Part shown: positions 11,235 through 63,701 of the stretch, one piece after another
Layout of the letters: each line of letters opens with the position of its first letter
Position numbering within the stretch: position 1 is the stretch's first letter
Position numbers and translations under genes: made by a program
Assembly: GCA_052034235.1 (NCBI GenBank)
Contig: JBPOIT010000007.1
Span: forward strand, 22,234-86,233
DNA length: 64,000 bases
Direction: 5' to 3'
Origin: Candidatus Levyibacteriota bacterium
Lineage (GTDB): Bacteria; Patescibacteriota; Microgenomatia; Levybacterales; UBA12049
Notes under the pieces: model-generated
What the model was told of the DNA's origin: nothing
Database searches by the model: none
What the model saw: only the letters and a program-made list of their open reading frames with translations

Positions 11235-11266
11235 TGACTTAAAAATCCCCGCATTTCTAAGACAGA
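11235..11266 (+). repeat. ftsZ 3'-end repeat, copy 2 (putative attL of prophage; encodes ...DDLKIPAFLRQKN-stop)
   Basis: gacttaaaaatccccgcatttctaagacaga. 22 nt match copy 1 exactly, and the gacttaRaaatccccgcatt portion matches copy 3. A 13-codon orphan reading frame ends in a stop. Confidence 0.75.
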
Positions 11267-11304: not shown

Positions 11305-11329
11305 AAGCGCCCACGAGGCGCTTTTTTCT
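11305..11329 (+). terminator. rho-independent terminator downstream of ftsZ-end copy 2
   Basis: GCGCC-cacga-GGCGC hairpin followed by TTTTTTCTT. Confidence 0.6.
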
Positions 11330-11533
11330 TGGCTTTCAAAGTACGGTTACATATTAACGGATAAGGTTAATAACCGTCAAGCGTATGAGCAAACAAAAAA
11401 CTGATCGAAATCAAGAAATCTACAAAAAGCATAAGCAAGGTAAATCTACTTATGCCCTCTCATTTGAGTATCAGATCACTCAACCTGCAATCTTCAAGAT
11501 TATCAAAAGGGAAGAAAAGAAGGAGGCAAAACT

Positions 11534-19062: not shown

Positions 19063-19074
19063 CGTTTCCCACAA

Positions 19075-45722: not shown

Positions 45723-45844
45723 CGTGAGTCCGGTGATCCGAACCGTCTCGTGGTTGGTAACTCCGACAACGGTGGTGCGGCGAACGTCAACTGGGATCAT
45801 CCTGACAACTCGAACGACAACGTGGGGTTCCGTGCTGCGGTAGT
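45723..45844 (+). repeat. DGR template repeat (TR)
   Basis: Adenine-rich at the variable codons (AAC/AAT). Differs from VR only at adenines. Lies in a 380-nt untranslated spacer upstream of avd/RT. The overlapping 144-aa ORF 45579-46013 is rejected. Confidence 0.9.
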
Positions 45845-45894: not shown

Positions 45895-46272
45895 TTAGGT
45901 GGAAGATGACCTTATCCATCCACCTAACATTTTACCAATTTCTTGAAGGGAGGATTCTAATTCAAGATATTTTTTATTATCAAGTATTTTTAGATCTTTA
46001 CATAACCTTATGAGTACTTTTGTTAAATCGAGCTTTGTACTTGCTCTTTGCAAGACTGGTATTTTTTCTTGTTTAGGTAGGCTCGCAGCGATTGTAACTG
46101 ATTCTAGAAAATCGAGAAGAGCATTTTCGCATCTCTGGCCAAGTGTATATTTATCTTTTTTAGGAAAGTTAACAAGGTAACCATAAAAGGTTTTGTATGT
46201 TTCGTAAGTTTTTTGAAAAATGGGAAAATCTAAAGTTTTATTAATTGATTGAAAATCATGAGAGTCTGGCAT
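45895..46272 (-). CDS. avd: accessory variability determinant (Avd; four-helix-bundle / 23S rRNA-IVS family)
   Basis: 125 aa. FPKKDKYTLGQRCENALLDF... and C-terminal EIGKMLGGWIRSS match the four-helix-bundle family signature (FPKxEKYxLxsQlrRA...EIGKMLNGLIKSL). Head-to-head with the RT gene, overlapping it by 24 nt. Confidence 0.55.
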   Translation of the reverse strand: MPDSHDFQSINKTLDFPIFQKTYETYKTFYGYLVNFPKKDKYTLGQRCENALLDFLESVTIAASLPKQEKIPVLQRASTKLDLTKVLIRLCKDLKILDNKKYLELESSLQEIGKMLGGWIRSSST

Positions 46273-47295: not shown

Positions 47296-47507
47296 AACAT
47301 AAATAACTCTTTTGGCTCTACCTTCAGAGCCTTGGAGAGCTTATATATGTTGTCCAGGGAGACATTTTGCTCTCCTCTCTCCACCGCTCCAATATAGGTG
47401 CGGTGAATACTGGCCTTAAACCCCAATGCTTCCTGAGAAAGCTTTGCGGCTTTTCTAACCTCCCTTAGTCTGTTTCCGAATTTTTTTCGGATATTAGTTT
47501 GTCCCAT
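47292..47507 (-). CDS. XRE-family HTH transcriptional regulator
   Basis: 71 aa; LSQEALGFKASIHRTYIGAVERGEQNVSLDNIYKLSKAL is a classic Cro/C1-type HTH. Confidence 0.6.
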   Translation of the reverse strand: MGQTNIRKKFGNRLREVRKAAKLSQEALGFKASIHRTYIGAVERGEQNVSLDNIYKLSKALKVEPKELFMF

Positions 47508-48114: not shown

Positions 48115-50388
48115 ATGAAATTATCAGACAATGAAAAACGAGACATTATTAAGTATCTTGAATCTGGGAAACCCCTTCCAGATAAATACAGATTCCTCCT
48201 CTTCGATGATGACCATGAAGTAGAACTGGTTTGGAATGGTAAAACAAACGAAATCTCCAATATTGTACTACCTTTTCAGACGATAGAACATATTGATGAA
48301 CCAAGAAGCGATGAATCAATCCGGATGCAGAAATCCCTTTTTGATATGTCTGGCCGTCAGATTGAAGGTTGGACAAATAAGCTCATTTGGGGCGATAACA
48401 AACTAATTCTGTCCTCACTCAAAAATGGCCCTCTTAGAAAAGAAATAGAAGCTCAAGGCGGTATAAAACTTATTTATATTGATCCTCCTTTTGATGTAGG
48501 CGCAGACTTTTCTATTGATGTTCAAATTGGTGAGGAAGAATTTATAAAGAAACCATCAGTAATTGAAGAAGTTGCATTTAGAGATACATGGGGTAAAGGT
48601 GTAGATAGTTTTATTGCAATGATTTATGAACGATTGCAATTAATGCACGATCTTTTAGCTGAAGATGGAAGTATTTATATTCACTGCGATGGTCGCGTGA
48701 GCGCATATCTTAAGCTTTGTCTTGATGAAATATTTGGAGCAGACAATAAAATGGCAGAGATAATTTGGAAAAGAAGTTCTGCTCATAATGATAGTAATTC
48801 TTATGGCACGATACATGACACAATTCATTTTTATACTAAAACAGATTTGAATATTTGGAATCCCACCTACGTTGAATACGACCAAGATTATATTGACCAA
48901 TATTATAGATATAAAGATCCTGATGGAAGAAAATGGTTGTCTCGCGACTGTAGTGCTCCTGGAGGGCGAGGGCCGAGATATGAATGGAATGGACATATTC
49001 GAAACTGGCGATACACCAAAGTTAAGATGCAAGAGCTTCATGATGCTGGGAAATTATTTTATACATCAAATGGTATACCTCGCTTTAAGCAGTATATGGA
49101 TGAGATGCCAGGTGTGCCCTCACAAAGTTTATGGATAGACAAAAGTGTTCAAGCAATTAATTCGTGGCATCAAGAAAATGAAGCTTACCCCACACAAAAA
49201 CCAGAAGGACTTTTAGAGCGAATTATAAAAGCGAGTAGTAATGAAAATGATATTGTGGCTGACTTTTTTGTTGGATCGGGAACAACATTGGCTGTCGCAG
49301 AAAAATTAGGTAGAAAATGGATAGGTTCTGATTTAGGAAGATTTTCAATGCACACTACCCGCAAAAGAATGATTAAAGTTCAAAGAGAGCTTAAGAAAGC
49401 AGGTAAAGATTTCAGAGCTTTTGAGATCCTAAATTTAGGAAAATATGAACGGGAACAGTTTATTGGGAAAAACGACAATCTAAGAGAAGAAGACCGACAA
49501 TTGCAGCAGCAAAAGAAAGAACAAGAATTTATAAAATTGATTCTATCAGCTTACAAAGCAGAGGCTGTTGATTCATTTTTAACTATGGTTGGTAAAAAAA
49601 GAGATCGTCTTGTAGCAATCGGACCAATAAATTTTCCTGTTACTGCAGAATTCTTACATCAAGTCGTTACAGAGTGTATAGAGAAGAATATCACTAAAGT
49701 AGATGTGCTTGGGTTTGATTGGGAAATGGGTCTTGAAGTAGATCAATTTAAGAATCAAGGAGTTGATCTTCAGCTTAGAGTAATTCCAAGAGAAGTATTT
49801 GATAAGCGAGCAGTTGAAAAAGGACAAGTTAAATTTTATGAGGTAGCTTTTATTGAAGTTAAGCCCATTATAAAAAAGAATACTATCGCGGTTCAGTTAA
49901 TGGATTTTAGCGTCTTTTATAACCAAGATGATTCAGGTGAAATCGAAGAAAAATTAAAATCAGGTGGTTCTAAAGTTGTTGTCGAGAACGGTCAAGTGAT
50001 TAAGCTTAGTAAAGATAAAGGATCTGAGATTGTTAATCGAGAAGTATTAACAACTAAATGGACAGATTGGGTTGATTATTGGGCTGTTGATTTTAATTTT
50101 GAAAGTAAGAAAGAGTTCATTAGGAAAGCTAAAGATTTCGATATATCTCAACCAAAACTTGATGGTACCGAAGATCCAACACAAACAAAATTCCCTGAGT
50201 ATGAAGAATTATGGACTGGTAGTTATATTTTTGAAAATGAATGGCAATCATTTAGATCTCAAAAAGATAGAAATTTGGAATTAACTACAGTATTTAAAGA
50301 AGTCTCAAGAGGAACTTTAAAGATTGCAGTTAAAGTCGTTGATATTTTTGGTAACGATACAACAAAGGTGATTGAAGTTACAGTTTAA
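48115..50388 (+). CDS. mod: Type III restriction-modification system methyltransferase (Mod; N6-adenine/N4-cytosine, beta class)
   Basis: Motif IV LIYIDPPFD precedes motif I FFVGSGTTLAVAEKLGRKWIGSD (beta-class order). 757 aa, followed directly by a DEAH helicase-nuclease. Confidence 0.75.
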   Translation: MKLSDNEKRDIIKYLESGKPLPDKYRFLLFDDDHEVELVWNGKTNEISNIVLPFQTIEHIDEPRSDESIRMQKSLFDMSGRQIEGWTNKLIWGDNKLILSSLKNGPLRKEIEAQGGIKLIYIDPPFDVGADFSIDVQIGEEEFIKKPSVIEEVAFRDTWGKGVDSFIAMIYERLQLMHDLLAEDGSIYIHCDGRVSAYLKLCLDEIFGADNKMAEIIWKRSSAHNDSNSYGTIHDTIHFYTKTDLNIWNPTYVEYDQDYIDQYYRYKDPDGRKWLSRDCSAPGGRGPRYEWNGHIRNWRYTKVKMQELHDAGKLFYTSNGIPRFKQYMDEMPGVPSQSLWIDKSVQAINSWHQENEAYPTQKPEGLLERIIKASSNENDIVADFFVGSGTTLAVAEKLGRKWIGSDLGRFSMHTTRKRMIKVQRELKKAGKDFRAFEILNLGKYEREQFIGKNDNLREEDRQLQQQKKEQEFIKLILSAYKAEAVDSFLTMVGKKRDRLVAIGPINFPVTAEFLHQVVTECIEKNITKVDVLGFDWEMGLEVDQFKNQGVDLQLRVIPREVFDKRAVEKGQVKFYEVAFIEVKPIIKKNTIAVQLMDFSVFYNQDDSGEIEEKLKSGGSKVVVENGQVIKLSKDKGSEIVNREVLTTKWTDWVDYWAVDFNFESKKEFIRKAKDFDISQPKLDGTEDPTQTKFPEYEELWTGSYIFENEWQSFRSQKDRNLELTTVFKEVSRGTLKIAVKVVDIFGNDTTKVIEVTV

Positions 50389-50393
50389 AAATT

Positions 50394-53078
50394 ATGGCAT
50401 TACATAAAGATTTTCCAATCGATCCATACGCAATTTTAGATCCAAATATAAGATGGTTTCCTGCTGTCGAGGATTTAAGAGAAAAAGGTGGATATGAGCG
50501 GCTTTTGCCTCCATTTATTTCGGAACTTCGAAAAAGAGTAAAAGAATGGAGGGACAACGACTATGCTGAAGCTAGTGAAACTTCAAAAGCGCTTTTAAAT
50601 TGGTGGTTTAAAGAAGAACATACGATTTTTGATAAAAATGGCATGTCCACTCCATTTAAGTATTATTTCTCTCAAAGAGAAGCCGTTGAAACAGTTATCT
50701 GGTTATACGATGTTGCAAAGGTTAAAAGTAAATACGATTTAATTAAATTCGATTCATTGGGAAGAGTCAGTCCTAATATGTTTAATGAGGATTGGTTAAG
50801 ATTCGTTATTAAAATGGCAACAGGAAGCGGGAAAACAAAAGTAATGAGTTTGATTTTGGCATGGGCATACTTCCACAAACTCTATGAGAAGGACTCAAAA
50901 TTAGCTCGTAATTTCTTACTTATAACTCCAAATATTATCGTACTTGAAAGAATAAAAACAGACTTCTTAGGTTTAAAGATATTTCATGAAGATCCAATAC
51001 TACCTGATAATGGATATTCCGGACAGAATTGGCAAGACGATTTTCAATTGACCTTACACTTACAAGATGAGATCGGTTCTATATCTCCTACCGGGAATAT
51101 ATTTTTAACAAATATTCATCGAGTTTTTGAAGGCAATATAGAAGAATCTAGTCCCGATGATGAGGATAGTACAACATATTTTCTTGGTCCAAAACCTGTT
51201 AACAAGACAAATGATTCAAGAGTAGATTTAAGTTCGATTATTCGTGAAATCGATGAATTAATAGTTATTAATGACGAAGCTCACCACATTCATGACGAGA
51301 AGTTAGCTTGGTTTAAATCAATTCAGGACATTCACAATAAACTTAAATTAAAAAATGGAGAACTAGCACTACAGATTGATGTAACTGCCACACCTAAACA
51401 TAACAATGGCGCAATTTTTGTTCAAGTAGTATCTGACTATCCGCTTGTAGAAGCGATTCACCAACGAGTTGTAAAAAATCCCGTATTGCCAGATCAAGCT
51501 AGCAGAGCAAAGCTAAAAGAGAATCAAAGCTCTCTATTTACTGAGAAATACGAAGATTACATAAACTTGGGAGTTATCGAGTGGAAAAAGACCTATGAAG
51601 AATTATTAAAAGCTGGTAAAAAGTCGATTTTATTTATAATGACAGATGACACAAAAAACTGTGATGAGGTGGCTGAATATTTGGAGAGAACATATGCTGA
51701 ATTTAAGGGTGCGGTTTTGACAATTCACACAAATAAAAGCGGTGAAATATCAGAGACTATTCAAGGAAAAGATGAAAAAGAATTGGTAAAGCTTAGGGAA
51801 CAAGCAAATGCAATAGATAGTAACGAAAGTCCTTTTAAAGCGATTATTTCTGTATTGATGCTTAAAGAGGGTTGGGATGTAAAAAACGTTACAACAATTG
51901 TTGGGTTGAGAGCATATTCCTCTACTGCAAATATATTGCCGGAGCAAACATTAGGTCGAGGTTTAAGAAGGATGTTTTTTGGAAGAGATGATCTGGCAGA
52001 GTACGTAAGCATTATTGGTACGCCTGCATTTATGGATTTCGTTGAGTCCATTAAAGGAGAAGGTGTTATTTTGGAAAAGCGCGCAATGGATATAGGAGCA
52101 AAGCCTATTACTCCGGTTGTTATTGAAGTTGATAAAGAAAATGTTAAGAAAGATATTGAAAAACTCGATATTGAACTGCCTATTCTTACTCCAAGAATTC
52201 AGAGAGAGTACAAAAATCTCTCAAAGCTAGATGTTTCAAGCTTTCCTCATAAAAAAATGCCGGTAAAACAATTTAGTGATAAGGAGAAAAAGGAAATAAT
52301 TTTTAAAGAAGTTATCGCGGACAAGCTTCACCACACAACTGTTTTAGATACAAATATTGAACCTAGTTATCAAAGTGCCGTTGGGTTTTTTGCTCAAACG
52401 ATAATGAGAGAACTGCGGCTATTTGGCTGCTACGATATTTTATTTGGACAGGTAAAAGAGTTTGTGAGTAATTACTTATTCGAGACTGCAGTAAATTTGG
52501 ATGATTTAAATATTCTTCGCAATTTATCTGAGCCTGAAGTAACGAAAACCATAACAGAAGTATTCAAAAAGGAAATTAACGATCTCACAATCGAAGATAA
52601 AGGGGATGCTGAGATAAAAAATTACATAAAAATCAGTAATTGTAGGCCATTTGTTGTTAACGACAACGCTTATCTCTTACCGAAGAAGAGCATTTTTAAT
52701 AAAATTGTTGGCGATAGTCATTTTGAGCTTGAATTTGCTGATTTTCTTGAAAGTTGTGAGGACATATTGTCATTTGCTAAAAACTACTTTGAAATACATT
52801 TCAAAATTGATTATAAAAACTCCGATGGATCAATCTCTTATTACTATCCTGATTTCTTTGTAAAAAAAGATAATAAAACTGTTTATATTATCGAAACAAA
52901 AGGCAGAGAAGATCTTGATGATCCAATTAAGATAGCTCGTTTGGCTCAGTGGTGCAATGATGCAAATGGAAGACAAAGCAAGATACAGTACGAAATGTTA
53001 TATGTTAAGGAAGATGAATGGAATAAATATAAACCGAAAGATTTTACCGAGTTGGTTAAAATTTACAAATCTGAATAA
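50394..53078 (+). CDS. res: Type III restriction enzyme Res subunit (SF2 helicase + nuclease)
   Basis: Walker A MATGSGKTKV, DEAH box VINDEAHHIHD, helicase motif VI-like region; 894 aa. C-terminal IIETKGRED resembles a PD-(D/E)XK motif. Confidence 0.75.
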   Translation: MALHKDFPIDPYAILDPNIRWFPAVEDLREKGGYERLLPPFISELRKRVKEWRDNDYAEASETSKALLNWWFKEEHTIFDKNGMSTPFKYYFSQREAVETVIWLYDVAKVKSKYDLIKFDSLGRVSPNMFNEDWLRFVIKMATGSGKTKVMSLILAWAYFHKLYEKDSKLARNFLLITPNIIVLERIKTDFLGLKIFHEDPILPDNGYSGQNWQDDFQLTLHLQDEIGSISPTGNIFLTNIHRVFEGNIEESSPDDEDSTTYFLGPKPVNKTNDSRVDLSSIIREIDELIVINDEAHHIHDEKLAWFKSIQDIHNKLKLKNGELALQIDVTATPKHNNGAIFVQVVSDYPLVEAIHQRVVKNPVLPDQASRAKLKENQSSLFTEKYEDYINLGVIEWKKTYEELLKAGKKSILFIMTDDTKNCDEVAEYLERTYAEFKGAVLTIHTNKSGEISETIQGKDEKELVKLREQANAIDSNESPFKAIISVLMLKEGWDVKNVTTIVGLRAYSSTANILPEQTLGRGLRRMFFGRDDLAEYVSIIGTPAFMDFVESIKGEGVILEKRAMDIGAKPITPVVIEVDKENVKKDIEKLDIELPILTPRIQREYKNLSKLDVSSFPHKKMPVKQFSDKEKKEIIFKEVIADKLHHTTVLDTNIEPSYQSAVGFFAQTIMRELRLFGCYDILFGQVKEFVSNYLFETAVNLDDLNILRNLSEPEVTKTITEVFKKEINDLTIEDKGDAEIKNYIKISNCRPFVVNDNAYLLPKKSIFNKIVGDSHFELEFADFLESCEDILSFAKNYFEIHFKIDYKNSDGSISYYYPDFFVKKDNKTVYIIETKGREDLDDPIKIARLAQWCNDANGRQSKIQYEMLYVKEDEWNKYKPKDFTELVKIYKSE

Positions 53079-53746
53079 TGATAAAACTATCACGATCAAA
53101 AATTGAGTTACTTTTCGACTGCCCTCGTTGCTTTTGGTTTTATGCCGGAAAAAGCATTGCCCGCCCGTTTGGTGCTCCTTACACAATAAATAATGCGGTA
53201 GATTTTATCCTTAAAAAGGAATTTGATGTCCATAGAGCCAATGGAACTGCTCACTATCTAATTGTAAGGGATGGAATTGATGCAATTCCATATATGCACG
53301 AAGATATTGATAAATGGAGACACAACTTTACAGGTATTCAATTTCACCACCAAGAGACAGATTTCCTTGTTTTTGGAGCAGTTGATGATATATGGGTCGA
53401 TTCCCAGGGAAATCTCATTGTGGTGGATTACAAAGCCTCTGGGGCTAAAGAAGGAGAGCTTTACGATAGTTATAAAAGACAGATGGAAATTTACCAATGG
53501 ATACTAAGACAAAATGGATTTAAGGTGCAAAATCGTGGGTATTTCGTATATTGCCGAGTAAATAAAGAGAATGGGTTTCCAGAGGGTAAACTTAGCTTCG
53601 ATATTAAACTTCAGCCATATGATGGTGATGATAGTTGGGTTACAAATAAGATCTTCGAAGCAAAAAAGATATTGGATGGAAAAATGCCTGATAGCTCCGA
53701 GGCGTGCACATATTGCAAGTATGTTAAATCTCTTCAGATCGATTAA
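53078..53746 (+). CDS. Cas4-like PD-(D/E)XK nuclease with N- and C-terminal Cys pairs
   Basis: CPRCFW near the N-terminus and CTYCKY at the C-terminus flank VDD...VVDYKAS (D...D-x-K). Start overlaps the res stop. Confidence 0.5.
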   Translation: MIKLSRSKIELLFDCPRCFWFYAGKSIARPFGAPYTINNAVDFILKKEFDVHRANGTAHYLIVRDGIDAIPYMHEDIDKWRHNFTGIQFHHQETDFLVFGAVDDIWVDSQGNLIVVDYKASGAKEGELYDSYKRQMEIYQWILRQNGFKVQNRGYFVYCRVNKENGFPEGKLSFDIKLQPYDGDDSWVTNKIFEAKKILDGKMPDSSEACTYCKYVKSLQID

Positions 53747-53772
53747 AGCTATAAAAAGGAAAGGAAACCCTC

Positions 53773-56700
53773 ATGCCAAGTAGGGTTGATTACTCTATAC
53801 CTCCTCCGACTAATTGGGAGGCTTTTGAGAGCCTCTGCCGTGATTTATGGGCAGAAATTTGGAATGATACCAATACTCAAAAGAATGGAAGACAAAGCCA
53901 ACCTCAACATGGAGTCGATGTTTATGGTGAACCGAAAAAAAGTCAGTGGGCAGGCTTACAGGCTAAAGAGAAAGATCAACTTCCAGCAAAAACTCTTACG
54001 ATCACTGAGCTTCGGGCTGAAGTTAAAAAGGCAAAGAGTTTTACACCCGCACTAAAAGAGTATGTCGTAGCAACCACTGGTCCCAGAGATGTAAATGTTC
54101 AAGAGGAAGCAAGAAAAATAACAGAGGAAAATCGTAAGAGCGGGTTATTTGATGTGGTTGTTTATAGCTGGGAAGATATTGAGGCACTTCTTAAGAAATA
54201 TCAGAATGTTTATAGACTCCACTATCCTCAACATTTCCCTGATTTAGAAGGTGTAGAATCCCTAACTAAGCAAGTATTAGATAAACAAGATGAAAATTTT
54301 GAAAAGTCTTCAGAAGAAATTAGTGGTCTGAAATTTGAAGTAGGTAGTGGATTTAAACATTTAGCTGACCAAATGTCTGTAGGTGGCGATGTTACCCAAG
54401 AACATCAAGTAGAGATAGACTATGCAAGAGATTTAATTGATAAGCATAAACCTGCTTCAGCTTTAAGTTATTTAGAACCGATAAAAGATCGTATCTGGAA
54501 TCAGACAACTCCAAGTGTGAAATTCCGACTTCTCACTAATATCGCTGCAGCAAAACTTGAATTGGGCGAGGAGAAAGATGCTGCTCAATTATTCATTGAA
54601 GCATTGCAATACAACCCCGATGAGGAAAAAGCATTATGTAATGTTGCACTTGCATATATTCTCCTTGATAAGCCTGATAAAGCTGAAGAATATGTCAAAA
54701 AAGTATTACTAAAAAATCAAGCAAGTGGGCGTGGATATTCAATGCTAATTCAGATTCGTTCTGACGCTTCAGTCCCTGTCGAAAAAATTATTAGTGAGAT
54801 ACCTTCTGAATATCACGACCTACCGGTGGTTGCCTACGCATTAGGAACGGTGTGCAGGAGAAGTCAGCACTTCAAAGAAGCACTTGAATGGTTTAAAAAG
54901 GCTGGGACTGCAAAAAATAAGGAACCAGAATATTTAGTTTCTCAAGCAACTACTCTCCTTGCATCTATTTCCACAAACATGCACTTGTCTTTCTCTAAAA
55001 GATTGACAAAGGATGAGCATGAAAAAGTAATAGAGGCTGTCGGTTTGTTTGAGCAAGCTTGGGAAGAAATAAAATCACACGAAGATAAAAGTCTAAAAAT
55101 TGAGTGTCTAACCAATAAAGGTATTTCATACATGTTACTTGGTGATACTCAAAAAGCAGCGATAAGTTTTGACGATGCTCTTGTTATGGAGCCGGATAAC
55201 CCAAGCTACATTTTCAACAGAGCATTTATTGATTATGAATCGGGTAAGAAGGATCTTGCTTTAGAGAGAATAAAAAAAATAGCTGAAAACCCCGAACTTC
55301 CAGCCGCCATTTTAATTGGTGATATATATCTGAGTAGCAGCAACAGTAATCCAGAAATATTACGCAAAGAGGCTCTTCCCGTAGTTGAAAAGTACATAAA
55401 ACTTAATCCACCACCTTTCTTAAGAGGTGCAGCTGAAAGATTATTAATTCAGCTGAATGTAGCATTAAACCAACTAAAGGAAGCTGCTGAAATCGCTGAT
55501 GAGTTAGTAAAACGAAATCCTAAGGATATAAATTCGCTTGTGAGTCAGTCCAGAATATACAGATTACTTAAGGATGAAAAAAAAGCTGATGAAAGCCTTT
55601 CAGCAGCAGAAAAACTTGTAGACAAAGATACGACATATTTTGATCTGCTAGCTTTAGCTGATGAATATAATTTCGTAGGTAAATTTGGTAAAGCATCAAC
55701 TTTTTATGAGAGGGTTACGGATATTAAAGTCGATAGTGAAATAACTAGGCGATTGATCGATACATATCTTAAATCAGGAAATAATCAAAAAGCGCTTTCT
55801 GTTTGTAAATCGATAAGAGAGAATCAAGGCTTAATCAGAGAGGTTATTGAACTTGAAGCCACACTTCATGAAGATATTGGAGATCTCGAAAATGCAACAA
55901 AATTGTGCGAAGAATATCTTAAGGAAAACCCAAATGACGAGAGAGTAAAGTTACACCTTGCTGCTATTAACTTCAGGAACCAAAAACTAAATCAGGTTGA
56001 TGAATTTTTAAAAACACCTTTTGATTATGAAAACTTATCTTTAAGGTATCGCATTCAGTATGCTCAACTGTTAGGAATTAGAGGATTTAATAAAGAAGCA
56101 ATAAATGTAATGTATGAAACGAGACGAAAATATTTCGATCAAAGTGAAGCACACTTACAATATATCACCACGCTCTTCAGAACCGAAGAGAGAGATGATA
56201 AATGGATTCATCCGGATGCAATTTCTGAAGGAACCGCCGCATTGTTAGAAGACAAAAATGGTACGAAAGTTTGGTATCTCATAGAAGATAGAGCCGATGC
56301 AGATTTTGCCAAAAATGAACTGAAGCCTCAACATTCCCTTGCCCAGAGAATGATCGGAAAAAAGATCGGTGATGAAGTTGAATTAGTATCCTCTGGTCCT
56401 CAAAAAAAGTACGGAAAAGTTGTAGAGATAAAAAGCAAATATATTTACGCTTTGCATAACAGCATGAATTCTTATCAAAAAATGTTTCCGGAAGCTGATG
56501 GACTATATGAAATTGATTTAAAAAGTGGAGAAACTGGAGAAATCGAAAAAAAAGATCTGGAAATACTTTTTAAGCAAGTAGATCAACAACACGAACGTTA
56601 TTCTAAAGTGATGAAACTGTATACAGAAGGGCATCTGACAGTTGGAGCTTTATCTAAGATGTTGAGCAGGAATGAGGTTGAAGCTTGGGGTTTATTAACA

Positions 56701-57702
56701 AGTCAGGAAGAACCAGGATTAAAATGCTGTATTGGCGATGTTAATTTAAGAAGAAGCGCACAAACAAGCCTAAATACCAATCCAAAACCCAAGATAGTTA
56801 TTGATGTTCTAGCTCTTCTTACGATTCATGGTTTGGAAGGCGCAGATATTGTAGTGAAACATTATGGAAAATTCCTAATCTCTCAGTCCACGATTGATGT
56901 TTTTAATGAGTTAGTGACCAATTGTAAGGGAATGCAGGCAAAAGGATTTATGAGTGTAGGTAAACAAGGCGATCAATATGTAAAAGAAGAAATTACTGCA
57001 GATCAACTAAAGAAAAATTCAGAATATCTCAAGGGTATTTTGGCGTGGATTAAAAAGAATTGTGTAATTACTCCTTGCCATGAAGCATTAAAACTAGATG
57101 CAGATAAGAGAGAAGAGTTATATAAACTTTTTGGTATTTCATCTATCGACAGTATTTTAATTGCTAAGCAGGAAGATGCACTTCTTTATTCAGATGATGA
57201 AAGATTACGATCATTTGCTCTTGGTTCGTATAGTGTCCAGGGAGTATGGACACAAGCTGTTATAGAGAATTTACTTAATTTGGGTATTATCAGTAACGAA
57301 AAATATCAAGATTTCGTAATACGCTTGGTCAATTCTAATTATGTTTTTACGAGTATTAACTCTGATACTTTGATTGAAGCTACAAAACAGTCTCAGTGGA
57401 AGCCGGATAGAAATTTTATGAAAATGGTAAGTTTGTTGAATGGAAAAAAGTGTGATGACATACCTGCAATAATTGTCGTCTCTGACTATATTCAAAAACT
57501 AATTAATCAACCAATATTTATTGATGATCCTAAAAACATATGCTTTGTTGTTTTGGATAATGCTATTAAAGATAGGCTTAATAAGCCTGAATTTCTTCAG
57601 AGGTTGGAGATAAGACTTAATAAACTATTTATGCTGTCTCCGACAAAACTTTCTGAGGCTAAACTAATACTAGCTGCGTGGTTAAAAACTCAGATTGTGT
57701 AA
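53773..57702 (+). CDS. 1309-aa protein: N-terminal Mrr/restriction-endonuclease-like domain + very long TPR/helical-repeat region (candidate defence protein)
   Basis: N-terminal HGVDVYGE...AGLQAKEKD fits a D...(Q)xK PD-(D/E)XK pattern. Residues ~200-1000 are TPR-like (repeated A/L/Y/N/P helical hairpins). No P-loop was found. Confidence 0.45.
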   Translation: MPSRVDYSIPPPTNWEAFESLCRDLWAEIWNDTNTQKNGRQSQPQHGVDVYGEPKKSQWAGLQAKEKDQLPAKTLTITELRAEVKKAKSFTPALKEYVVATTGPRDVNVQEEARKITEENRKSGLFDVVVYSWEDIEALLKKYQNVYRLHYPQHFPDLEGVESLTKQVLDKQDENFEKSSEEISGLKFEVGSGFKHLADQMSVGGDVTQEHQVEIDYARDLIDKHKPASALSYLEPIKDRIWNQTTPSVKFRLLTNIAAAKLELGEEKDAAQLFIEALQYNPDEEKALCNVALAYILLDKPDKAEEYVKKVLLKNQASGRGYSMLIQIRSDASVPVEKIISEIPSEYHDLPVVAYALGTVCRRSQHFKEALEWFKKAGTAKNKEPEYLVSQATTLLASISTNMHLSFSKRLTKDEHEKVIEAVGLFEQAWEEIKSHEDKSLKIECLTNKGISYMLLGDTQKAAISFDDALVMEPDNPSYIFNRAFIDYESGKKDLALERIKKIAENPELPAAILIGDIYLSSSNSNPEILRKEALPVVEKYIKLNPPPFLRGAAERLLIQLNVALNQLKEAAEIADELVKRNPKDINSLVSQSRIYRLLKDEKKADESLSAAEKLVDKDTTYFDLLALADEYNFVGKFGKASTFYERVTDIKVDSEITRRLIDTYLKSGNNQKALSVCKSIRENQGLIREVIELEATLHEDIGDLENATKLCEEYLKENPNDERVKLHLAAINFRNQKLNQVDEFLKTPFDYENLSLRYRIQYAQLLGIRGFNKEAINVMYETRRKYFDQSEAHLQYITTLFRTEERDDKWIHPDAISEGTAALLEDKNGTKVWYLIEDRADADFAKNELKPQHSLAQRMIGKKIGDEVELVSSGPQKKYGKVVEIKSKYIYALHNSMNSYQKMFPEADGLYEIDLKSGETGEIEKKDLEILFKQVDQQHERYSKVMKLYTEGHLTVGALSKMLSRNEVEAWGLLTSQEEPGLKCCIGDVNLRRSAQTSLNTNPKPKIVIDVLALLTIHGLEGADIVVKHYGKFLISQSTIDVFNELVTNCKGMQAKGFMSVGKQGDQYVKEEITADQLKKNSEYLKGILAWIKKNCVITPCHEALKLDADKREELYKLFGISSIDSILIAKQEDALLYSDDERLRSFALGSYSVQGVWTQAVIENLLNLGIISNEKYQDFVIRLVNSNYVFTSINSDTLIEATKQSQWKPDRNFMKMVSLLNGKKCDDIPAIIVVSDYIQKLINQPIFIDDPKNICFVVLDNAIKDRLNKPEFLQRLEIRLNKLFMLSPTKLSEAKLILAAWLKTQIV

Positions 57703-57712
57703 AAATTAATTT

Positions 57713-58552
57713 ATGAATGACGAACAACAATTTAAACATAGATATTCACTACTAAAAATAGATGTAACTGATACTCTTCCTATTGCTGATTTTTTTGATG
57801 ACGATCATTATGTTGGATTTCAAAACAGCGACAATCTTGAAGAACTTTTAGATTTAGCGGTAGTTGGCTTTTGGAAGTTAAACCCAACAATGAAAACTTA
57901 TGAAGATTGGGAAACAAAAGCAGAAGATGGTGGTTTTGATTTTCAAATTACTGCAGGCAAACGGATTATTTTTAGATCAAGCTTATTGTTAGCTGATCCA
58001 AGAATTATGGGGGCAATTTATCTTGTTCGAGATTTCCATAGTGGTCAAGTACGCAAAGGCGATGGATTTCCGTACTTAGAACATCCTTTAGAAGTTGGAT
58101 ACCGTTTATGGAGAGATAAATTTCCGGGCGATGTTGTTGCTGCAGGATTTTGCCACGATCTTTTAGAAGATACTAAATGTACTGAGGATGAAATTAAAGA
58201 AAAATGCGGTGACGAGGTGTTGCGAATAGTCAAAGCTGTATCTAACGATGAGTCATTATCTGATAAGAAAGACTGGGAAAAGAAAAAAGAGAAATATATT
58301 ATGTCTGTCAAAAATGGTGGAGAAAAAGCAATAGCAGTAAGTATAGTAGATAAAATCAGTAATCTTTATTCTTTTTTTGATCAGTATGAGAAAGAAGGGC
58401 CAGCACTTTGGAAAAAGTTTAATAGGGGAAAAGACAAAAAGGTGTGGTTTGAAAAAGAAGTTATGAGCATGGCACGAAGCAACTGGAAACATCCATTACT
58501 TGATGAATTAGAAAAATTGATTTCTAAACTTGAGCAGACTCAGGCGGGCTAA
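57713..58552 (+). CDS. HD-domain (p)ppGpp-hydrolase-like protein (RelA/SpoT HD family, small alarmone hydrolase-like)
   Basis: HSGQVRKGDGFPYLEHPLEVG...AAGFCHDLLEDT matches the RelA/SpoT hydrolase HD signature (H...HD...D). Confidence 0.6.
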   Translation: MNDEQQFKHRYSLLKIDVTDTLPIADFFDDDHYVGFQNSDNLEELLDLAVVGFWKLNPTMKTYEDWETKAEDGGFDFQITAGKRIIFRSSLLLADPRIMGAIYLVRDFHSGQVRKGDGFPYLEHPLEVGYRLWRDKFPGDVVAAGFCHDLLEDTKCTEDEIKEKCGDEVLRIVKAVSNDESLSDKKDWEKKKEKYIMSVKNGGEKAIAVSIVDKISNLYSFFDQYEKEGPALWKKFNRGKDKKVWFEKEVMSMARSNWKHPLLDELEKLISKLEQTQAG

Positions 58553-58559
58553 TTATAAA

Positions 58560-60125
58560 ATGAATATGATAATTACTCCACGCCGAAGAAAATTAAAACT
58601 TATATTAAAGAGGTTATTAAGGTTAAAGATAGTTTTTACAGTTTTTGCTCTCCTGCTTATTTTAGATGTCGTATTCACAAAAGCATTGGGAGATAAATAT
58701 GAAGATAGGTTTCCGGTCATATTCTGGACATCTCTTCCTTTTATGCTCTATGTTCTTCTCGGATTAAGTTTCCCAATAGTCTTAAGAGTGGAAAGAAGTA
58801 GAAAATACTATTTGATCCTCTGGTTATTATTACTGTCCATTATTCTTTTTGGCATATATTGGATCTCAGATGAGAAATTACATTCCTGGTTTTTACTAAG
58901 TAATGTTTTAAGCTATTTTGTTGTCAGTTTATGGGTAGCCGTTATTATTCTCTTACTTTTACAGATTCCAAAAATAAAGAAAGTTCACTTCTCTACACTT
59001 ATTTCAAAAACTTTTTCTGTTGTAGCAAATATTAAAAAAAGATTAACTGTAAATACCTTATTGTTGATCCTTATTCTTTCAGCTGTGGTTTACTACGGGA
59101 ATGCTCAACTGCAAAAAGTAAATAGTAGGCTCGATACAATTGAGAATAGACTTGGGGGACCGAAAAAGATTGCATGCAATGAAAAAGACACAATTAATAA
59201 AGTAAGACGTTCTGTTGTGCGCATTGTAGGTGGTGAATCAGAAGGATCAGGTTTTGCAGTGAAAACAGGCGGATTAATTCTTACCAATTTCCATGTAATT
59301 GAATTTGAACCCGCTCCAAAAGTCGTTTTGCCGGACAATACATTTGAAACAGCTGAGGTTATTATGGCTGACAAGAACGCTGATCTGGCAATAATAAAAA
59401 TCAGCAAAGATCTTCCTGTAATTTCTTGGGGTGAACCTACTGAGCTTGAACCGGCAGAAGAACTTTTAGCAATTGGATTTCCTTTGGGTGGCTCACTTTC
59501 AGGGGAATCATCTGTAAATAAAGGATCTCTAGCAGGTAGACGAAAATCAAAAGATGTTGGAGTTGAATATTTACAGACTGATATTACATTAACTCCTGGA
59601 GTAAGCGGTGGTCCTATGGTTAATGTATGTGGAGACGTAATGGGAATAAATACTGCAGGGCTGTCAGGGCTAGGATTAGCTATCTCTGCTGATTCCGCAA
59701 AGCAGAAATGGCTTGAAATGGCGACATCTGACGATTCACTTAAGGATATTAAAAAAATCTCATTCAATGATACTGAAAGTGCTGAATTTGCTGTTGCAAC
59801 TTTCTACAATTATTTAAAAGTAAGAAAGCTTGATAAAGCATTTGAACTACTTTCAGACAATTTTAAGAATGGGCACGGTTTCGATTATTGGAAAGGTGGA
59901 TATACAACACTTCTTGATACAACTGTAATTAAGATTGAGGATGATAAAACTAAAAAGGATCGTGTAACAATTAAGCTCTCTACTAAGGATATGGTTGATG
60001 ACGAGATTGTATATAAATATTTTGAGGGCTATTGGGATGCAAAAAATATTAACGGAAAATGGAGGCTTTGGGACCCTGAAATTAAAGAAGTGAAAGATCC
60101 AGGCTATCTCTGGTTCTATGAATAA
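58560..60125 (+). CDS. membrane-anchored trypsin-like (S1) serine protease with C-terminal extra domain
   Basis: N-terminal TM helices; catalytic triad context TNFHV (His), DLAIIKI (Asp), GVSGGPMVN (Ser). The C-terminal ~130 aa are unassigned. Confidence 0.6.
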   Translation: MNMIITPRRRKLKLILKRLLRLKIVFTVFALLLILDVVFTKALGDKYEDRFPVIFWTSLPFMLYVLLGLSFPIVLRVERSRKYYLILWLLLLSIILFGIYWISDEKLHSWFLLSNVLSYFVVSLWVAVIILLLLQIPKIKKVHFSTLISKTFSVVANIKKRLTVNTLLLILILSAVVYYGNAQLQKVNSRLDTIENRLGGPKKIACNEKDTINKVRRSVVRIVGGESEGSGFAVKTGGLILTNFHVIEFEPAPKVVLPDNTFETAEVIMADKNADLAIIKISKDLPVISWGEPTELEPAEELLAIGFPLGGSLSGESSVNKGSLAGRRKSKDVGVEYLQTDITLTPGVSGGPMVNVCGDVMGINTAGLSGLGLAISADSAKQKWLEMATSDDSLKDIKKISFNDTESAEFAVATFYNYLKVRKLDKAFELLSDNFKNGHGFDYWKGGYTTLLDTTVIKIEDDKTKKDRVTIKLSTKDMVDDEIVYKYFEGYWDAKNINGKWRLWDPEIKEVKDPGYLWFYE

Positions 60126-60133: not shown

Positions 60134-60823
60134 TTATTCCTGAGGTTTTATAAGCTCTTCTGAATCATTTTTAGGACTGTTGACTGCAGTAGATACTCTG
60201 GTTGCTTTCATTTGATCGCTTGGATAAGGTTTTAAGAGTGGTAATAGTCGTTCCGGTTCTATAACATCAGGATCTAGCCAAAAATCCTCATCTTCTTTAC
60301 TGAGTATTACCGGCATTCTTTGATGGACAGGAGCAACTACATCATTTGGTTCAGTTGTAATAATTGTGTAGCTGTAAATTTCTTGTCCATCCTTCGGATC
60401 TTTCCAGACATCATATAAGCCTGCAAAGGCAAATAATGATTCGTCTTTCAGTTGAAAATAATAAGGAATACTTGGTTTTGTCGATTTATCCCATTCATAA
60501 AATCCTGAAGCCGGTATCAAACATCTTTGAAAGCGAAGTGGTTTTTTATACGACGGTTTACTCTCAATTCCTTCAGCGCGAGCATTAATTGTTTTATAAC
60601 TCATGCTAGAGTCTTTTGCCCAGTGGGGAATTAAGCCCCAGAGCATGAATTGAATTGAGTTTGGACTATGCCGAGTAATTGTAGGCTGCATTGTACCAGG
60701 CGCGATATTATAATGAGATTTCAGATTCGGTACTTCATTCTCGATCTCGAAGCGCTTGTATACATCCCTGGCACTGCTTATTGAGAAGCCATATCTGCCA
60801 CACATAATACTGTTATTATACAC
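60134..60823 (-). CDS. SOS-response-associated peptidase (SRAP/YedK/HMCES family) abasic-site processing protein
   Basis: N-terminal MCGRY with catalytic Cys2, 229 aa; divergent from the LexA-like gene. Confidence 0.8.
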   Translation of the reverse strand: MYNNSIMCGRYGFSISSARDVYKRFEIENEVPNLKSHYNIAPGTMQPTITRHSPNSIQFMLWGLIPHWAKDSSMSYKTINARAEGIESKPSYKKPLRFQRCLIPASGFYEWDKSTKPSIPYYFQLKDESLFAFAGLYDVWKDPKDGQEIYSYTIITTEPNDVVAPVHQRMPVILSKEDEDFWLDPDVIEPERLLPLLKPYPSDQMKATRVSTAVNSPKNDSEELIKPQE

Positions 60824-60840
60824 TATGTGCCTCTTGAAAA

Positions 60841-60856
60841 GTAAACAAATGTTTAT
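60841..60856. promoter_or_regulatory. palindromic operator GTAAACA-AA-TGTTTAT (putative LexA/repressor box) in SRAP-repressor divergent promoter region
   Basis: One of three copies of GTAAACA-N2-TGTTTAC. It lies 18 nt upstream of the SRAP start and 40 nt upstream of the repressor start. Confidence 0.5.
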
Positions 60857-60896
60857 TATACTTAAGAGCGTGGTTTTATTAAATAATTATTAACTT

Positions 60897-61484
60897 ATGC
60901 GTACTCCAAGTATCAAAACTGAAATTGCGATTAAAAAAATTAGACAGTTCCACCAAAAGCAGCGAAGAGTGCCTACTTTAGAAGAGATGTCAAAACTCTT
61001 TAAATTTGCTTCCAAGAGATCTGCTTTCCTTCTAGTGGAAAGATTGGTTGAAGCTGGGTTAATTGAGAAAGACATTAAAGGTCGCATAACAATCAAACGG
61101 ATGTTTCTCCCTTTACCTGTTTTAGGTTCGATTAGAGCAGGATTTCCGCAAGACGAGGAAGAACAACTTATTGATACTCTTTCATTTGACGAGTACTTAG
61201 TAGATCGTCCAGAGTCTTCTTATTTACTCAAAGTTATTGGAGATTCAATGGAAGATGCAGGGCTTCGCGAGGGAGATATTGTAATTGTCGATAAGAGAAA
61301 AGAACCGAAAGAAAATGATATTGTAGTCGCAAATGTTGATGACCAATTTACTCTTAAATATTTTCGAACGATAGATGGTAAGGTTTGTTTAGTTCCTGGA
61401 AACAATAAATATAAGACTATTTACCCAAAAGATAGTTTGAGCATACAAGGTGTTATTATTAGCACAGTGCGTAGGTATCGTTAA
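60897..61484 (+). CDS. lexA: LexA-type S24 autopeptidase repressor (host-like LexA or prophage CI analogue)
   Basis: N-terminal LexA-type winged HTH (VPTLEEMSKLFKFASKRSAFLLVERLVEAGLIEK). Cleavage-site region VLGSIRAGFP, catalytic GDSM (Ser) and VANVDDQFTLKYF (Lys). Confidence 0.75.
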   Translation: MRTPSIKTEIAIKKIRQFHQKQRRVPTLEEMSKLFKFASKRSAFLLVERLVEAGLIEKDIKGRITIKRMFLPLPVLGSIRAGFPQDEEEQLIDTLSFDEYLVDRPESSYLLKVIGDSMEDAGLREGDIVIVDKRKEPKENDIVVANVDDQFTLKYFRTIDGKVCLVPGNNKYKTIYPKDSLSIQGVIISTVRRYR

Positions 61485-61487
61485 TAT

Positions 61488-62156
61488 ATGTTTATTTATC
61501 TTGATGAAAGTGGAACTCTTACAGAAAGTAATGGCAAATATTTTGTCATAGGCACTTATACTGTTGGTGATCCTCGGAAAATTACTAAAGCTTTCAGAAA
61601 ATGGCAGAAAACTAAGTTCCCCAAGAAATTGAGAAGGCAAGCTGAGTTAAAGTTTAACGATTCTCACATAGATGACAAGCTTAGACTTAAAACACTTCAA
61701 TATTTCGCTAAACAAGACATCCGGATCTTTTATACTTATCTTCAGAAAAAGAATATTCCAAAGGAATATTACAAAAAAGGTAAGGTAACTGAGACTGGAT
61801 TACTCTATACCGAAATCGTCAGAGCAACTCTTGAATTATATATGCCAGTTACTGATAGCCAACTTACTATCGTGAGGGATCAAAGGACTTTAAAAGGAGT
61901 TAGTGTAAGTAAATTTGACGAGATTCTTCGAGCGAGTTTATTGCCTAAGCTTCCCGCAAAGGTAGTTTTGGAAGTACAAGCTGTTGATTCTACCAGTAAT
62001 CCGCTTATTCAAGTTTCTGATTGGGTTTGTGGCGCTCTTGCTAGATATTATGAAGGAAAGCCATCAGGAGAAGAGTTTTATACTGTTCTTAAAGGGAATA
62101 TCGTTCAGGAGAAAGAACTGTTTTCAGAGAAATGGACAAAGACTTGGGAGAAGTAG
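61488..62156 (+). CDS. DUF3800-family protein
   Basis: N-terminal MFIYLDESGT signature of DUF3800. Confidence 0.5.
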   Translation: MFIYLDESGTLTESNGKYFVIGTYTVGDPRKITKAFRKWQKTKFPKKLRRQAELKFNDSHIDDKLRLKTLQYFAKQDIRIFYTYLQKKNIPKEYYKKGKVTETGLLYTEIVRATLELYMPVTDSQLTIVRDQRTLKGVSVSKFDEILRASLLPKLPAKVVLEVQAVDSTSNPLIQVSDWVCGALARYYEGKPSGEEFYTVLKGNIVQEKELFSEKWTKTWEK

Positions 62157-62348
62157 ATACAAAAAAGACCTGCGTATGCAGATCTGTTTTGTTAGAGCGG
62201 CGGTGCTATAAATGTTGTTCCTAGACTCGTACTGAATGAACCATTCAGGAGCATCTAGGCATATATAGCGTATTATTACCAGCTCCATGAATAATATACC
62301 AAATCAGGGAGAGTTTGTCAAGGGTAAATGGAGAGTTCTAGCCTCAAA

Positions 62349-63371
62349 TCACTTCACAAACATAGTAAAAGCAAGAGAATTACTACCCCTTTCTAGTTTA
62401 TAGTTAAATCTCTCATCTGTGTCTATTTTAAAGCCGTCAATTAAATCCTGAAGCATTTTAATAATTTCTTTAGGATCAATGTTTCTTCGAATCAAAGGAT
62501 GTCTATACATAGCCTTCTTGAGGGTTTCATCGGCTAAATGAACATAATTCTCATAAGTGGTTTGAATATCTTTGTGCCCCAAGATTGCAGCAACCATTGT
62601 AATATCAACTCCGGACATTAACAGTTGAGTAGCTAGGCTATGACGAAACAAATGGGGATGAACTCTTTTGGTTACACCGGCTGCTACTGCTCGGCGCTTT
62701 AGATCCTTTATAAAATCTTGAGGATGAATTCTTCCACCAGTTAGACTATTAAATACCAAATCTTCGGGATTCTTACCTTCAACAAGTTTTTTCAATCGTG
62801 AAATAAGAGGTTCAGTAATATGAGCGTGGCGGATCTCTTTATTCTTGGTTAATACGAATGTTGCTTTTCCAGCTGAGAGATCAAGTAGCTTTACCTTAAG
62901 TGAGGCCATTTCATCAAACCGGCAACCAGTATAGGCAAGAAACATACATACGGTCCTGTGTCTAAAATCCAAGATTTCTGTTACTTCTGCAGCAGTGCGT
63001 TTGTAAAAATGCCCATAAGTTAAAGGCATATTGATAATACTTTCAATTTCATCAGGAGTAAGGATGATAATAGTGGGTTTTACTTTAGTGAATGCAGTGA
63101 AGCTTTCGAAGAAATTATTATCTGATCCACGATCCTTAATATAGTCTTGGATATATCTGAGAGTGAAGAAGTAGGTGTTTAGAGTGTTATTATTGAGTCC
63201 CTTTTGCTTCAAATAGAAAAAGAACTCTTCTACAGAGTCCTTATTGAGTTCTTTATTGTTTTCCTTGAGCCAATTGTTTATGATATTGAAGCGAACCTTG
63301 CAGAGACGAACAGAGTTAGCTGCTAAGCTTTTCTTGATAGTTATGTATCTTATAAAATCTAGTTCATCCAT
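62349..63371 (-). CDS. int: tyrosine-type site-specific integrase
   Basis: C-terminal catalytic domain with R...HxLRHS...Y (HLFRHSLATQLLMSGVDITMVAAILGHKDIQTTYENYVHL). It lies next to the right att repeat. Confidence 0.85.
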   Translation of the reverse strand: MDELDFIRYITIKKSLAANSVRLCKVRFNIINNWLKENNKELNKDSVEEFFFYLKQKGLNNNTLNTYFFTLRYIQDYIKDRGSDNNFFESFTAFTKVKPTIIILTPDEIESIINMPLTYGHFYKRTAAEVTEILDFRHRTVCMFLAYTGCRFDEMASLKVKLLDLSAGKATFVLTKNKEIRHAHITEPLISRLKKLVEGKNPEDLVFNSLTGGRIHPQDFIKDLKRRAVAAGVTKRVHPHLFRHSLATQLLMSGVDITMVAAILGHKDIQTTYENYVHLADETLKKAMYRHPLIRRNIDPKEIIKMLQDLIDGFKIDTDERFNYKLERGSNSLAFTMFVK

Positions 63372-63390
63372 AATAAGGAATTATTCATAA

Positions 63391-63406
63391 GTAAACATTT
63401 GTTTAC
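63391..63406. promoter_or_regulatory. palindromic operator GTAAACA-TT-TGTTTAC 20 nt upstream of integrase start
   Basis: Perfect 7-bp arms. Same motif as at 60841 and 63471. Confidence 0.5.
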
Positions 63407-63470
63407 TATTAATAATAGTTGATGAGATGTTAATTGACAATTGGTTGTTAAGGAATCTAACAATATCAAA

Positions 63471-63486
63471 GTAAACTTTTGTTTAC
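63471..63486. promoter_or_regulatory. palindromic operator GTAAAC-TTTT-GTTTAC (third copy)
   Basis: 100 nt upstream of the integrase start. Confidence 0.45.
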
Positions 63487-63494
63487 TTTACCCC

Positions 63495-63524
63495 TTGACA
63501 ACCGTTATTAACGCTCGATATAAT
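63495..63524 (+). promoter_or_regulatory. sigma70-like promoter TTGACA-N18-TATAAT
   Basis: Consensus -35 and -10 hexamers with an 18-nt spacer, immediately after operator copy 3 and pointing towards the right att repeat. Confidence 0.35.
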
Positions 63525-63619
63525 GTTAATGTACTTTTGAAAACACAAAAAAAGACCCACTTTCGTGAGTCTTCTCCCAAATAACTGTACGCAGTTATTT
63601 TAGCTTTAAAATGAGACTT

Positions 63620-63657
63620 GACTTAGAAATCCCCGCATTCATCAGACAGCGTAATTA
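63620..63657 (+). repeat. ftsZ 3'-end repeat, copy 3 (putative attR; encodes ...DLEIPAFIRQRN-stop)
   Basis: gacttagaaatccccgcattcatcagacagcgtaattaa matches copy 2 at 20 of 21 positions in gacttaRaaatccccgcatt, then in agacag, and encodes an FtsZ C-terminal peptide variant. Confidence 0.75.
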
Positions 63658-63701
63658 AACGAGCATTTCACTTCTTAACCTAGAAAATCTGTTTATACTC
63701 C

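Follow-up and report, generated by a model that had tools for sequence, protein, structure and literature searches.

A lexA gene and three palindromic boxes beside a phage integrase

The stretch analyzed here, 64,000 nucleotides (nt) of contig JBPOIT010000007.1 from the Candidatus Levyibacteriota bacterium assembly GCA_052034235.1 (positions 22,234 to 86,233; hereafter, the window), carries near its right end a 3.5-kb module that contains a gene for a LexA-family repressor of 195 amino acids (aa; 60897..61484, + strand). An SRAP/YedK-type gene (60134..60805, −) is divergently transcribed from it; downstream lie a DUF3800 gene (61488..62156, +) and, on the opposite strand, a gene for a tyrosine integrase of 340 aa (62349..63371, −). 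Profile searches confirmed all four gene identities proposed in an initial annotation of the DNA, with matches to PF02586 for SRAP (E = 2.5e-73, profile positions 1-214 of 214), PF00717 (Peptidase_S24) for the repressor (E = 4.9e-28), PF12686 for DUF3800 (E = 8.9e-13), and PF00589 for the integrase (E = 4.5e-33). The start of the SRAP gene was corrected from a GTG at 60823 to the ATG at 60805, so that the protein begins with MCGRYG and carries the catalytic Cys2. Three copies of a 16-bp palindrome, referred to as boxes 1 to 3, are found in the module, the first between the SRAP and lexA genes and the other two upstream of the integrase gene (int).

Judging from its sequence, the repressor is a full-length LexA homologue and not a protein of the lambda CI type. 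The lexA model TIGR00498 covers residues 13-193 at 107.4 bits, and phmmer aligns residues 16-192 with residues 16-197 of Escherichia coli LexA (entries 3jso/1jhh). The N-terminal domain is a winged helix-turn-helix (HTH), and no HTH_3 (Cro/C1) domain was detected in the protein by profile search. The Ala81-Gly82 cleavage site and the residues Ser117 (in GDSM) and Lys154 (in TLKY) are all present; Gly82, Ser117, and Lys154 are invariant in 31 homologues and Ala81 is nearly so (at least 90%). The repressor is thus predicted to be autocleavable, as the initial annotation had proposed. A scan of a genome collection yielded no LexA relative above 46% identity.

Box 1 (GTAAACAAATGTTTAT, 60841-60856) deviates from GTAAAC-N4-GTTTAC at one position (its end reads GTTTAT), and boxes 2 (GTAAACATTTGTTTAC, 63391-63406) and 3 (GTAAACTTTTGTTTAC, 63471-63486) match it perfectly. 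The initial annotation had located all three sites correctly, including the distances of 20 and 100 nt that separate boxes 2 and 3 from the integrase ATG (63371), but the longer pattern in which it described them, GTAAACA-N2-TGTTTAC, is perfect at 63391-63406 only, as the site at 60841-60856 ends in T and that at 63471-63486 has T at position 7. Random occurrence of the palindromes, which had been raised as a concern, is contradicted by their numbers. With up to one mismatch, GTAAAC-N4-GTTTAC is expected 0.15 times in the window; it is found at the three boxes and nowhere else, and a count of three was reached in none of 100 dinucleotide shuffles. The original pattern, with up to two mismatches, is expected 0.25 times. 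Furthermore, boxes 1-3 score 20-22 bits against a weight matrix built from 15 homologous sites, whereas the next-best site in the window scores 13.8 bits, which is inside the shuffle range.

Promoter geometry

Each box occupies a defined position relative to a predicted promoter. Box 1 fills the 17-nt spacer of the predicted lexA promoter (TTGAAA-17-TATACT, 60834..60862, +; 10/12 in the promoter scan), and the −35 element, the box, and the −10 element are invariant in an alignment of five loci while the flanks diverge. The same layout is found in at least 15 chromosomal lexA promoters, and autoregulation of the gene is predicted. On the other strand, box 1 is overlapped by the −10 element and the start site of the predicted SRAP promoter (TTAATA-16-TATAAT, 60855..60882, −; 10/12). 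The predicted int promoter (TTGTCA-17-TATTAT, 63412..63440, −; 10/12) has a −10 element conserved in the alignment of relatives, and box 2 begins 5 nt downstream of it, that is, at the predicted int start site; this order of −10 element and box is kept in the related loci L001, L003, L004, L088, and L086.

The remaining promoter (TTGACA-18-TATAAT, 63495..63524, +) faces outward, reads across the right attachment site (attR), and is conserved in the relatives. It is the sole 12/12 match of the promoter scan between 60000 and 64000. Box 3 ends 8 nt before its −35 element, a distance fixed in six loci, and the spacing between boxes 2 and 3 varies among relatives from 45 to about 120 bp.

A variant of the Cheo LexA box

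In architecture, the boxes correspond to the Cheo box, with 4-nt arms, N4 spacing, and an identical AAC-N4-GTT core; the outer arm position is A, instead of the Cheo G, in the three boxes and in L001, L003, L004, and L088. Genes for LexA relatives at 40-46% identity (from Parcubacteria, Syntrophales, Nitrospirota, and others) have GAAC-N4-GTTC between TTGACA and the −10 element. GTAAAC-N4-GTTTAC is found upstream of lexA in a Roizmanbacteria metagenome-assembled genome (MAG; L021, two boxes), in Saccharibacteria (L029, L031), and in a gammaproteobacterial MAG (L019), and a hybrid form, GTAAAC..GTTCAC, occurs upstream of lexA in L030, L037, and L081. In the Roizmanbacteria MAG, the sequence of box 2, GTAAACATTTGTTTAC, recurs identically in the promoter of a lexA-dinB operon in a chromosomal context (rpoC, EF-G, lexA, a small open reading frame (ORF), and a Y-family polymerase gene). 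Because of the Cheo layout, the hybrid forms, and the identical box at a chromosomal lexA-dinB operon, we do not regard the box as a new architecture: it is a Cheo box with A for G, already in use by chromosomal LexA proteins of the candidate phyla radiation (CPR), and not the undescribed LexA box suggested initially.

Concerted change of box and repressor

The pairing of lexA and int is kept in a family of relatives, in which LexA is 95% (L004/L005), 77% (L001), 71% (L003), and 69% (L088) identical to the repressor of the window. These loci have three boxes at the same positions, and the position of box 1 is also kept in L002. Alignments show the −35 element, the box, and the −10 element as invariant with variable adjacent bases, and the DNA on either side of the 3.5-kb module is unrelated in every relative. 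In more distant members, the boxes themselves differ. All three positions in L086, the LexA of which is 59% identical, are occupied by GTAAAC-N5-GTTTAC, whereas L089 (LexA 55% identical) has the canonical TTGAACGATCGTT(C/T)A at lexA and upstream of int. Thus, the palindrome is common to the lexA/SRAP promoter region and the int promoter, as initially described, its positions are kept in relatives, and its sequence varies in step with the repressor.

Of the DNA-binding proteins, LexA and the integrase alone are encoded in every module; box 1 is 2.5 kb away from the attachment (att) site. The SRAP gene is missing from the module in L088 and L089, leaving lexA and int as the conserved core. Since the boxes change together with LexA (N4, N5, GAAC) across elements, the element's own LexA is the likely binder of the boxes, and this concerted change is the best available evidence for it. 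The 5-nt spacer, seen in L086/L087 (8001-11467), means that the half-site spacing has changed by one base inside a single repressor family; the cargo of these elements includes Thoeris (ThsA/ThsB), GmrSD, and NUDIX genes. Residues of the recognition helix were considered as the determinant of GAAC versus AAAC boxes, and this idea was dropped for want of a clean pattern.

A mobile prophage in the 3′ end of ftsZ

The window begins with host cell-wall and division genes, the last of which is ftsZ (9008-10156); relatives of its product put the host in Patescibacteria. A prophage of 52.4 kb (about 11,250-63,636) is inserted in the 3′ end of ftsZ, and the lexA-int module adjoins its right att site. 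Contigs encoding a 100% identical FtsZ lack the entire 52.4-kb stretch, including lexA and int, and the locus is found in three states: ftsZ is followed directly by a gene for a 1013-aa M23/LamG peptidase (L092, L097), by a 1.1-kb element and then the M23 gene (L090, L091, L094, L095), or, as in the window, by the small 1.1-kb element and the additional 52.4 kb. The flanks are 99.5-99.9% identical across the three states and the att junctions are exact. The element is therefore mobile, and because part of the same population lacks the whole segment with exact att junctions, the lexA gene is phage-borne; the initial placement of the repressor inside a prophage, next to int and att, is borne out by these contigs and junctions.

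The last codons of ftsZ are present three times (10105-10157, 11223-11275, and 63607-63659). The attL core (11238..11261) reads CTTAAAAAT-CCCCGC-ATTTCTAAG and is followed by a terminator (11301-11327); the attR core (63622..63645) reads CTTAGAAAT-CCCCGC-ATTCATCAG, with the displaced original end of ftsZ after it. The two have in common the core CCCCGC, with 9-bp inverted repeats on either side. The attB sequence is GGGACATCCCCGCATTCCTCAG, the naive site being seen in L092 and L097, and the empty-site contigs resume at window position 63619/63626. The junctions fit a predicted tyrosine-recombinase core, CTTAGAAAT-CCCCGC-ATTTCTAAG, with a crossover in or near CCCCGC. Upon insertion, the phage arm rebuilds the C-terminus of FtsZ (now ending in IPAFLRQKN), replacing the tail, and supplies the terminator at 11301-11327. 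The displaced ftsZ end (63637-63645) is ATTCATCAG (Phe-Ile-Arg) in the occupied site versus ATTCCTCAG (Phe-Leu-Arg) in the naive one (L097, 2088-2096), a one-base polymorphism at a recombinase half-site. The 1.1-kb element (10157-11275) contains only a gene for a metallo-beta-lactamase-fold hydrolase (10204-11091, −) and has the same att core but no integrase; being present without the prophage in L090, L091, L094, and L095 and absent from L092 and L097, it appears to be a non-autonomous passenger that uses this integrase system.

The integrase finds its best NCBIfam matches among Xer models, yet scores 110-210 bits under their cutoffs; its match to the integron-integrase model TIGR02249 (65.4 bits, cutoff 265) is confined to residues 215-282. 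Other genes of the prophage encode an AAA_24 protein, a Lin1244-type replication protein, ParB, methylases, terminase, portal, capsid, tail tube and tape measure proteins, and a reverse transcriptase, and a relative of the element is entered as viral in IMG/VR.

Further features of the element

The DUF3800 gene starts 4 nt after the lexA stop codon and is therefore probably co-transcribed with lexA. It is an optional cargo of the module: L001 and L003 lack it, and L088 has an NYN-domain gene in its place. Between DUF3800 and int, 37 nt from the DUF3800 stop codon, lies a DUF3800-V small RNA gene (62166..62321, −; Rfam RF02964, 58.4 bits against a gathering threshold of 37.4, E = 1.4e-11), with its own TTGACA-17-TATATT promoter (62321-62293), the RNA itself (62287-62193), and a terminator (62185-62166). 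The function of the DUF3800 protein-RNA pair is not known (PMC5737381).

Inward-facing terminators are located at both ends of the element (11301-11327, +, and 63546-63579, −) and presumably insulate the prophage from read-through from ftsZ and the M23 gene. The right one (63546..63579), found by a terminator scan and with a hairpin that shows compensatory changes in six loci, would block host transcription from entering the int end. A search for structured RNA downstream of the outward-facing promoter found this terminator hairpin alone to be conserved and gave no significant Rfam match. At attR there is also a 15-codon ORF (63611-63658, +; MRLDLEIPAFIRQRN, followed by a stop codon) resembling the C-terminal tail of FtsZ, the in-frame ATG of which is present in five of six element types (L001, L003, L004, and L088 among them) and missing in L086. 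That this mini-ORF is a real gene has a low probability, because much of the resemblance, its 'DLE' codons included, would also follow from the palindromic att core with its 9-bp inverted repeat.

A defence-like cargo region (48115-60125), exchanged for other genes in every relative, separates the phage body from the lysogeny module. It encodes an N6/N4 methylase, a ResIII helicase-nuclease, a Cas4-like PD-(D/E)XK protein, a 1309-aa TPR-GreAB-C-PIN protein, an HD-domain protein, and a trypsin-like protease. Further to the left, a diversity-generating retroelement comprises two 122-nt repeats (45135-45256 and 45723-45844) and a reverse transcriptase gene (46249-47295); the repeats differ at 10 positions, each of them an adenine in the template copy, and the variable repeat lies at the 3′ end of a gene for a 666-aa protein (43269-45269). 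An intergenic motif of 41-47 nt (AAAAATGTATAAG ... TCAATAGAATTG) recurs six times (at 19069, 21077, 23632, 30224, 36168, and 39020) just before the starts of structural genes and could be a late promoter or a processing signal. Two additional candidate regulators were noted: a 50-aa HTH-like ORF (11386-11538, +), which follows a 7-bp inverted repeat (ACGGTTA..TAACCGT), and a 71-aa HTH_3 protein (47292-47507, −), the gene of which adjoins that of the reverse transcriptase and is conserved in L086.

A predicted DNA-damage switch and its alternatives

We consider it probable that the phage LexA controls its own promoter and those of SRAP, the integrase, and the outward-facing transcript through the three boxes, and that the arrangement acts as a DNA-damage switch. 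In this circuit, a repressor dimer would bind each of the 16-bp GTAAAC-N4-GTTTAC boxes. Binding to box 1, in the lexA(-DUF3800) promoter and over the SRAP start site, would result in autoregulation and repression of SRAP; binding to box 2, at the start site, would repress the int promoter; and at box 3 the dimer would abut the −35 element of the consensus outward promoter beside attR. Upon DNA damage, RecA filaments on single-stranded DNA would stimulate the repressor to cut itself between Ala81 and Gly82, with Ser117 and Lys154 as the catalytic dyad. The four promoters would thereby be freed, and integrase, SRAP (an abasic-site-shielding protein), and fresh repressor would be made. The sequences establish the identities of the genes, the catalytic residues, the positions and conservation of the sites, the co-variation of box and protein, and the mobility of the element; binding to DNA, dependence on RecA, and a consequence for excision are inferred, and we regard the predicted damage-dependent control of int, SRAP, and lexA-DUF3800 as well supported.

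Several observations weigh against this reading. The repressor narrowly misses the TIGR00498 equivalog cutoff of 110.95 bits and has no match to Pfam LexA_DNA_bind at E 0.01. A metagenome scan for AGTAAAC-N4-GTTTACT returned at least 120 stretches (L098-L217); among the matches listed, the palindrome lies upstream of TetR genes in 8 of 46 cases versus S24/LexA genes in 2 of 46, and recA is downstream in none of the 46, the downstream genes being mostly unrelated. With TetR-linked sites commoner than LexA-linked ones among these matches, the palindrome is no sure marker of LexA outside the present context, and its sequence by itself does not reveal which protein binds it. The outward promoter has no assigned gene, and box 3 precedes its −35 element instead of covering the promoter. 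Finally, the matrix scan of the 52-kb element and the window revealed no box near replication, structural, packaging, or lysis genes, and no excisionase was found in the element; for these two reasons, LexA control of the induction of the whole prophage is not supported, and derepression of int alone may be insufficient for excision or induction. The SOS-inducible prophage switch envisaged in the initial annotation is accordingly narrowed to predicted control of int, lexA-DUF3800, SRAP, and one outward promoter, with replication, structural, and lysis genes outside it. Likewise, the suggestion that SRAP takes the place of cro holds for its position only, given its absence from L088 and L089.

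A more far-reaching possibility, which we view as rather doubtful, is that the LexA-type protein is the master lysogeny repressor, analogous to CI, so that its cleavage switches on the lytic programme and the outward promoter serves as an early promoter across attP. The protein does sit at the classical position beside int and att. In the circular map, the box-3 promoter points at the left-end genes, its strand being that of every gene between 11.4 and 60 kb; integration would uncouple the promoter from these genes. However, a transcript from this promoter in the circular form would meet the strong intrinsic terminator at 11301-11327, which separates attP from the first left-end gene. In L004, a candidate for a circular form of the phage, the DNA after att is unrelated to the left end of the window, and the first gene there is on the opposite strand. 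Moreover, box 3 does not overlap the promoter, the element has no boxes elsewhere, and both the HTH_3 gene (47292-47507) and the HTH-like ORF (11386-11538) are other candidates for the role.

It is unlikely that the boxes serve as operators for a host regulator, be it the host LexA or another, with the element's LexA acting as a decoy, as an activator like gp6 of GIL01, or as a UmuD-like factor. Phages are known to employ host LexA, as does GIL01, which itself carries the LexA homologue gp6 (PMC6182141), and since the box is identical with the chromosomal CPR lexA box, it could be bound by a host LexA; elsewhere, similar palindromes serve TetR-type regulators. Nevertheless, the boxes shift in step with the element's own LexA, which has a complete DNA-binding domain and has box 1 in its own promoter as chromosomal lexA genes do, and the module has no TetR gene and no umuC nearby. 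That the locus is instead an ordinary, immobile SOS locus, made up of the host's chromosomal LexA and a neighboring Xer-type recombinase, is highly improbable: a full-length LexA homologue close to the equivalog cutoff, Xer models as the best recombinase matches, and a box equal to that of chromosomal CPR LexA would fit such a locus, but it is contradicted by the empty-site contigs with identical FtsZ and precise att junctions, the Xer scores far below cutoffs, and the occurrence of the module in different DNA in every relative.

Implications

Reading the locus as a phage-borne damage switch, we regard the switch as such as sound but fairly ordinary, its box being a one-letter variant of a known Gram-positive LexA box. 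New here are a CPR prophage that appears intact, is polymorphic within its population, and encodes a true LexA-family repressor, LexA operators on an integrase promoter, a phage box identical to a chromosomal CPR SOS box, and the co-variation of box and repressor within a family. To our knowledge, temperate phages of CPR bacteria have barely been characterized, and their sensing of host stress is experimentally unexplored. The locus offers a concrete, testable circuit of a phage-borne LexA, three operators with defined promoter geometry, and an integrase target, with occupied and empty sites occurring naturally within one population. The drift of a Cheo box (G to A, N4 to N5) along with its LexA in one family of mobile elements provides material for the study of how repressor specificity evolves.

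As the operator of the phage repressor is also the chromosomal SOS box, host and phage might cross-regulate each other, in that a host LexA of the same specificity could share the operators. On the assumption that the phage LexA has the operator specificity of chromosomal CPR LexA proteins, it might even be the SOS regulator of its host, or its replacement, and the attR ORF a damage-induced division inhibitor, which, expressed from the box-3-flanked outward promoter, could compete for partners of the FtsZ tail; we consider this combined scenario a long shot. A phage LexA in that host role, if real, would be a present-day case of the exchange of phage repressors with LexA from which SOS regulators have been proposed to originate (PMC8565304, Fig. 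9).

Comparison with known systems

One of the closest known systems is the Cheo-type LexA exemplified by DinR/LexA of Bacillus subtilis, which has the same two-domain architecture, Ala-Gly cleavage site, and Ser/Lys dyad and, between the −35 and −10 elements of its lexA promoter, a palindrome of 16 bp with the same arm length (4 nt) and spacing (N4). In contrast, the arm is AAAC here instead of GAAC, the gene resides on a prophage carried by only part of a population, and the targets known within the window are int, SRAP, DUF3800, and the outward promoter. Lambda CI and P22 C2 are likewise self-cleaving S24 repressors encoded beside int, autoregulated, and linking lysogeny to DNA damage, but the N-terminal domain here is the LexA winged HTH and not the Cro/C1 HTH_3, the divergent gene is SRAP and not cro, and there are no operators at lytic promoters. 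In integrons, intI is reportedly under SOS control through a LexA box over its promoter, a finding associated with Guerin et al. in 2009; there as here, recombination would follow DNA damage through a LexA box that covers the promoter or start site of a tyrosine recombinase gene, although here the repressor is supplied by the element and the recombinase is a phage integrase.

Genes of the SRAP/YedK family have been linked to SOS operons and temperate phages (Aravind et al. 2013, PMC3765255), and an SRAP gene adjoining an S24 autopeptidase gene inside a temperate phage conforms to this pattern, compare YoqW of SPbeta; the box common to the overlapping divergent promoters adds a concrete regulatory link, with SRAP an optional component. 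The genomic setting resembles that of lexA2 of Leptospira interrogans, which lies in the remnant of a prophage, next to what is left of an integrase (PMC3789691). Both are full-length, laterally acquired LexA homologues encoded in prophage DNA near a phage integrase. Unlike the Leptospira locus, however, the prophage described here looks intact, its att and empty sites are defined, boxes are also present on the integrase promoter, and the LexA-Int pairing is conserved across a family at 55-95% identity.

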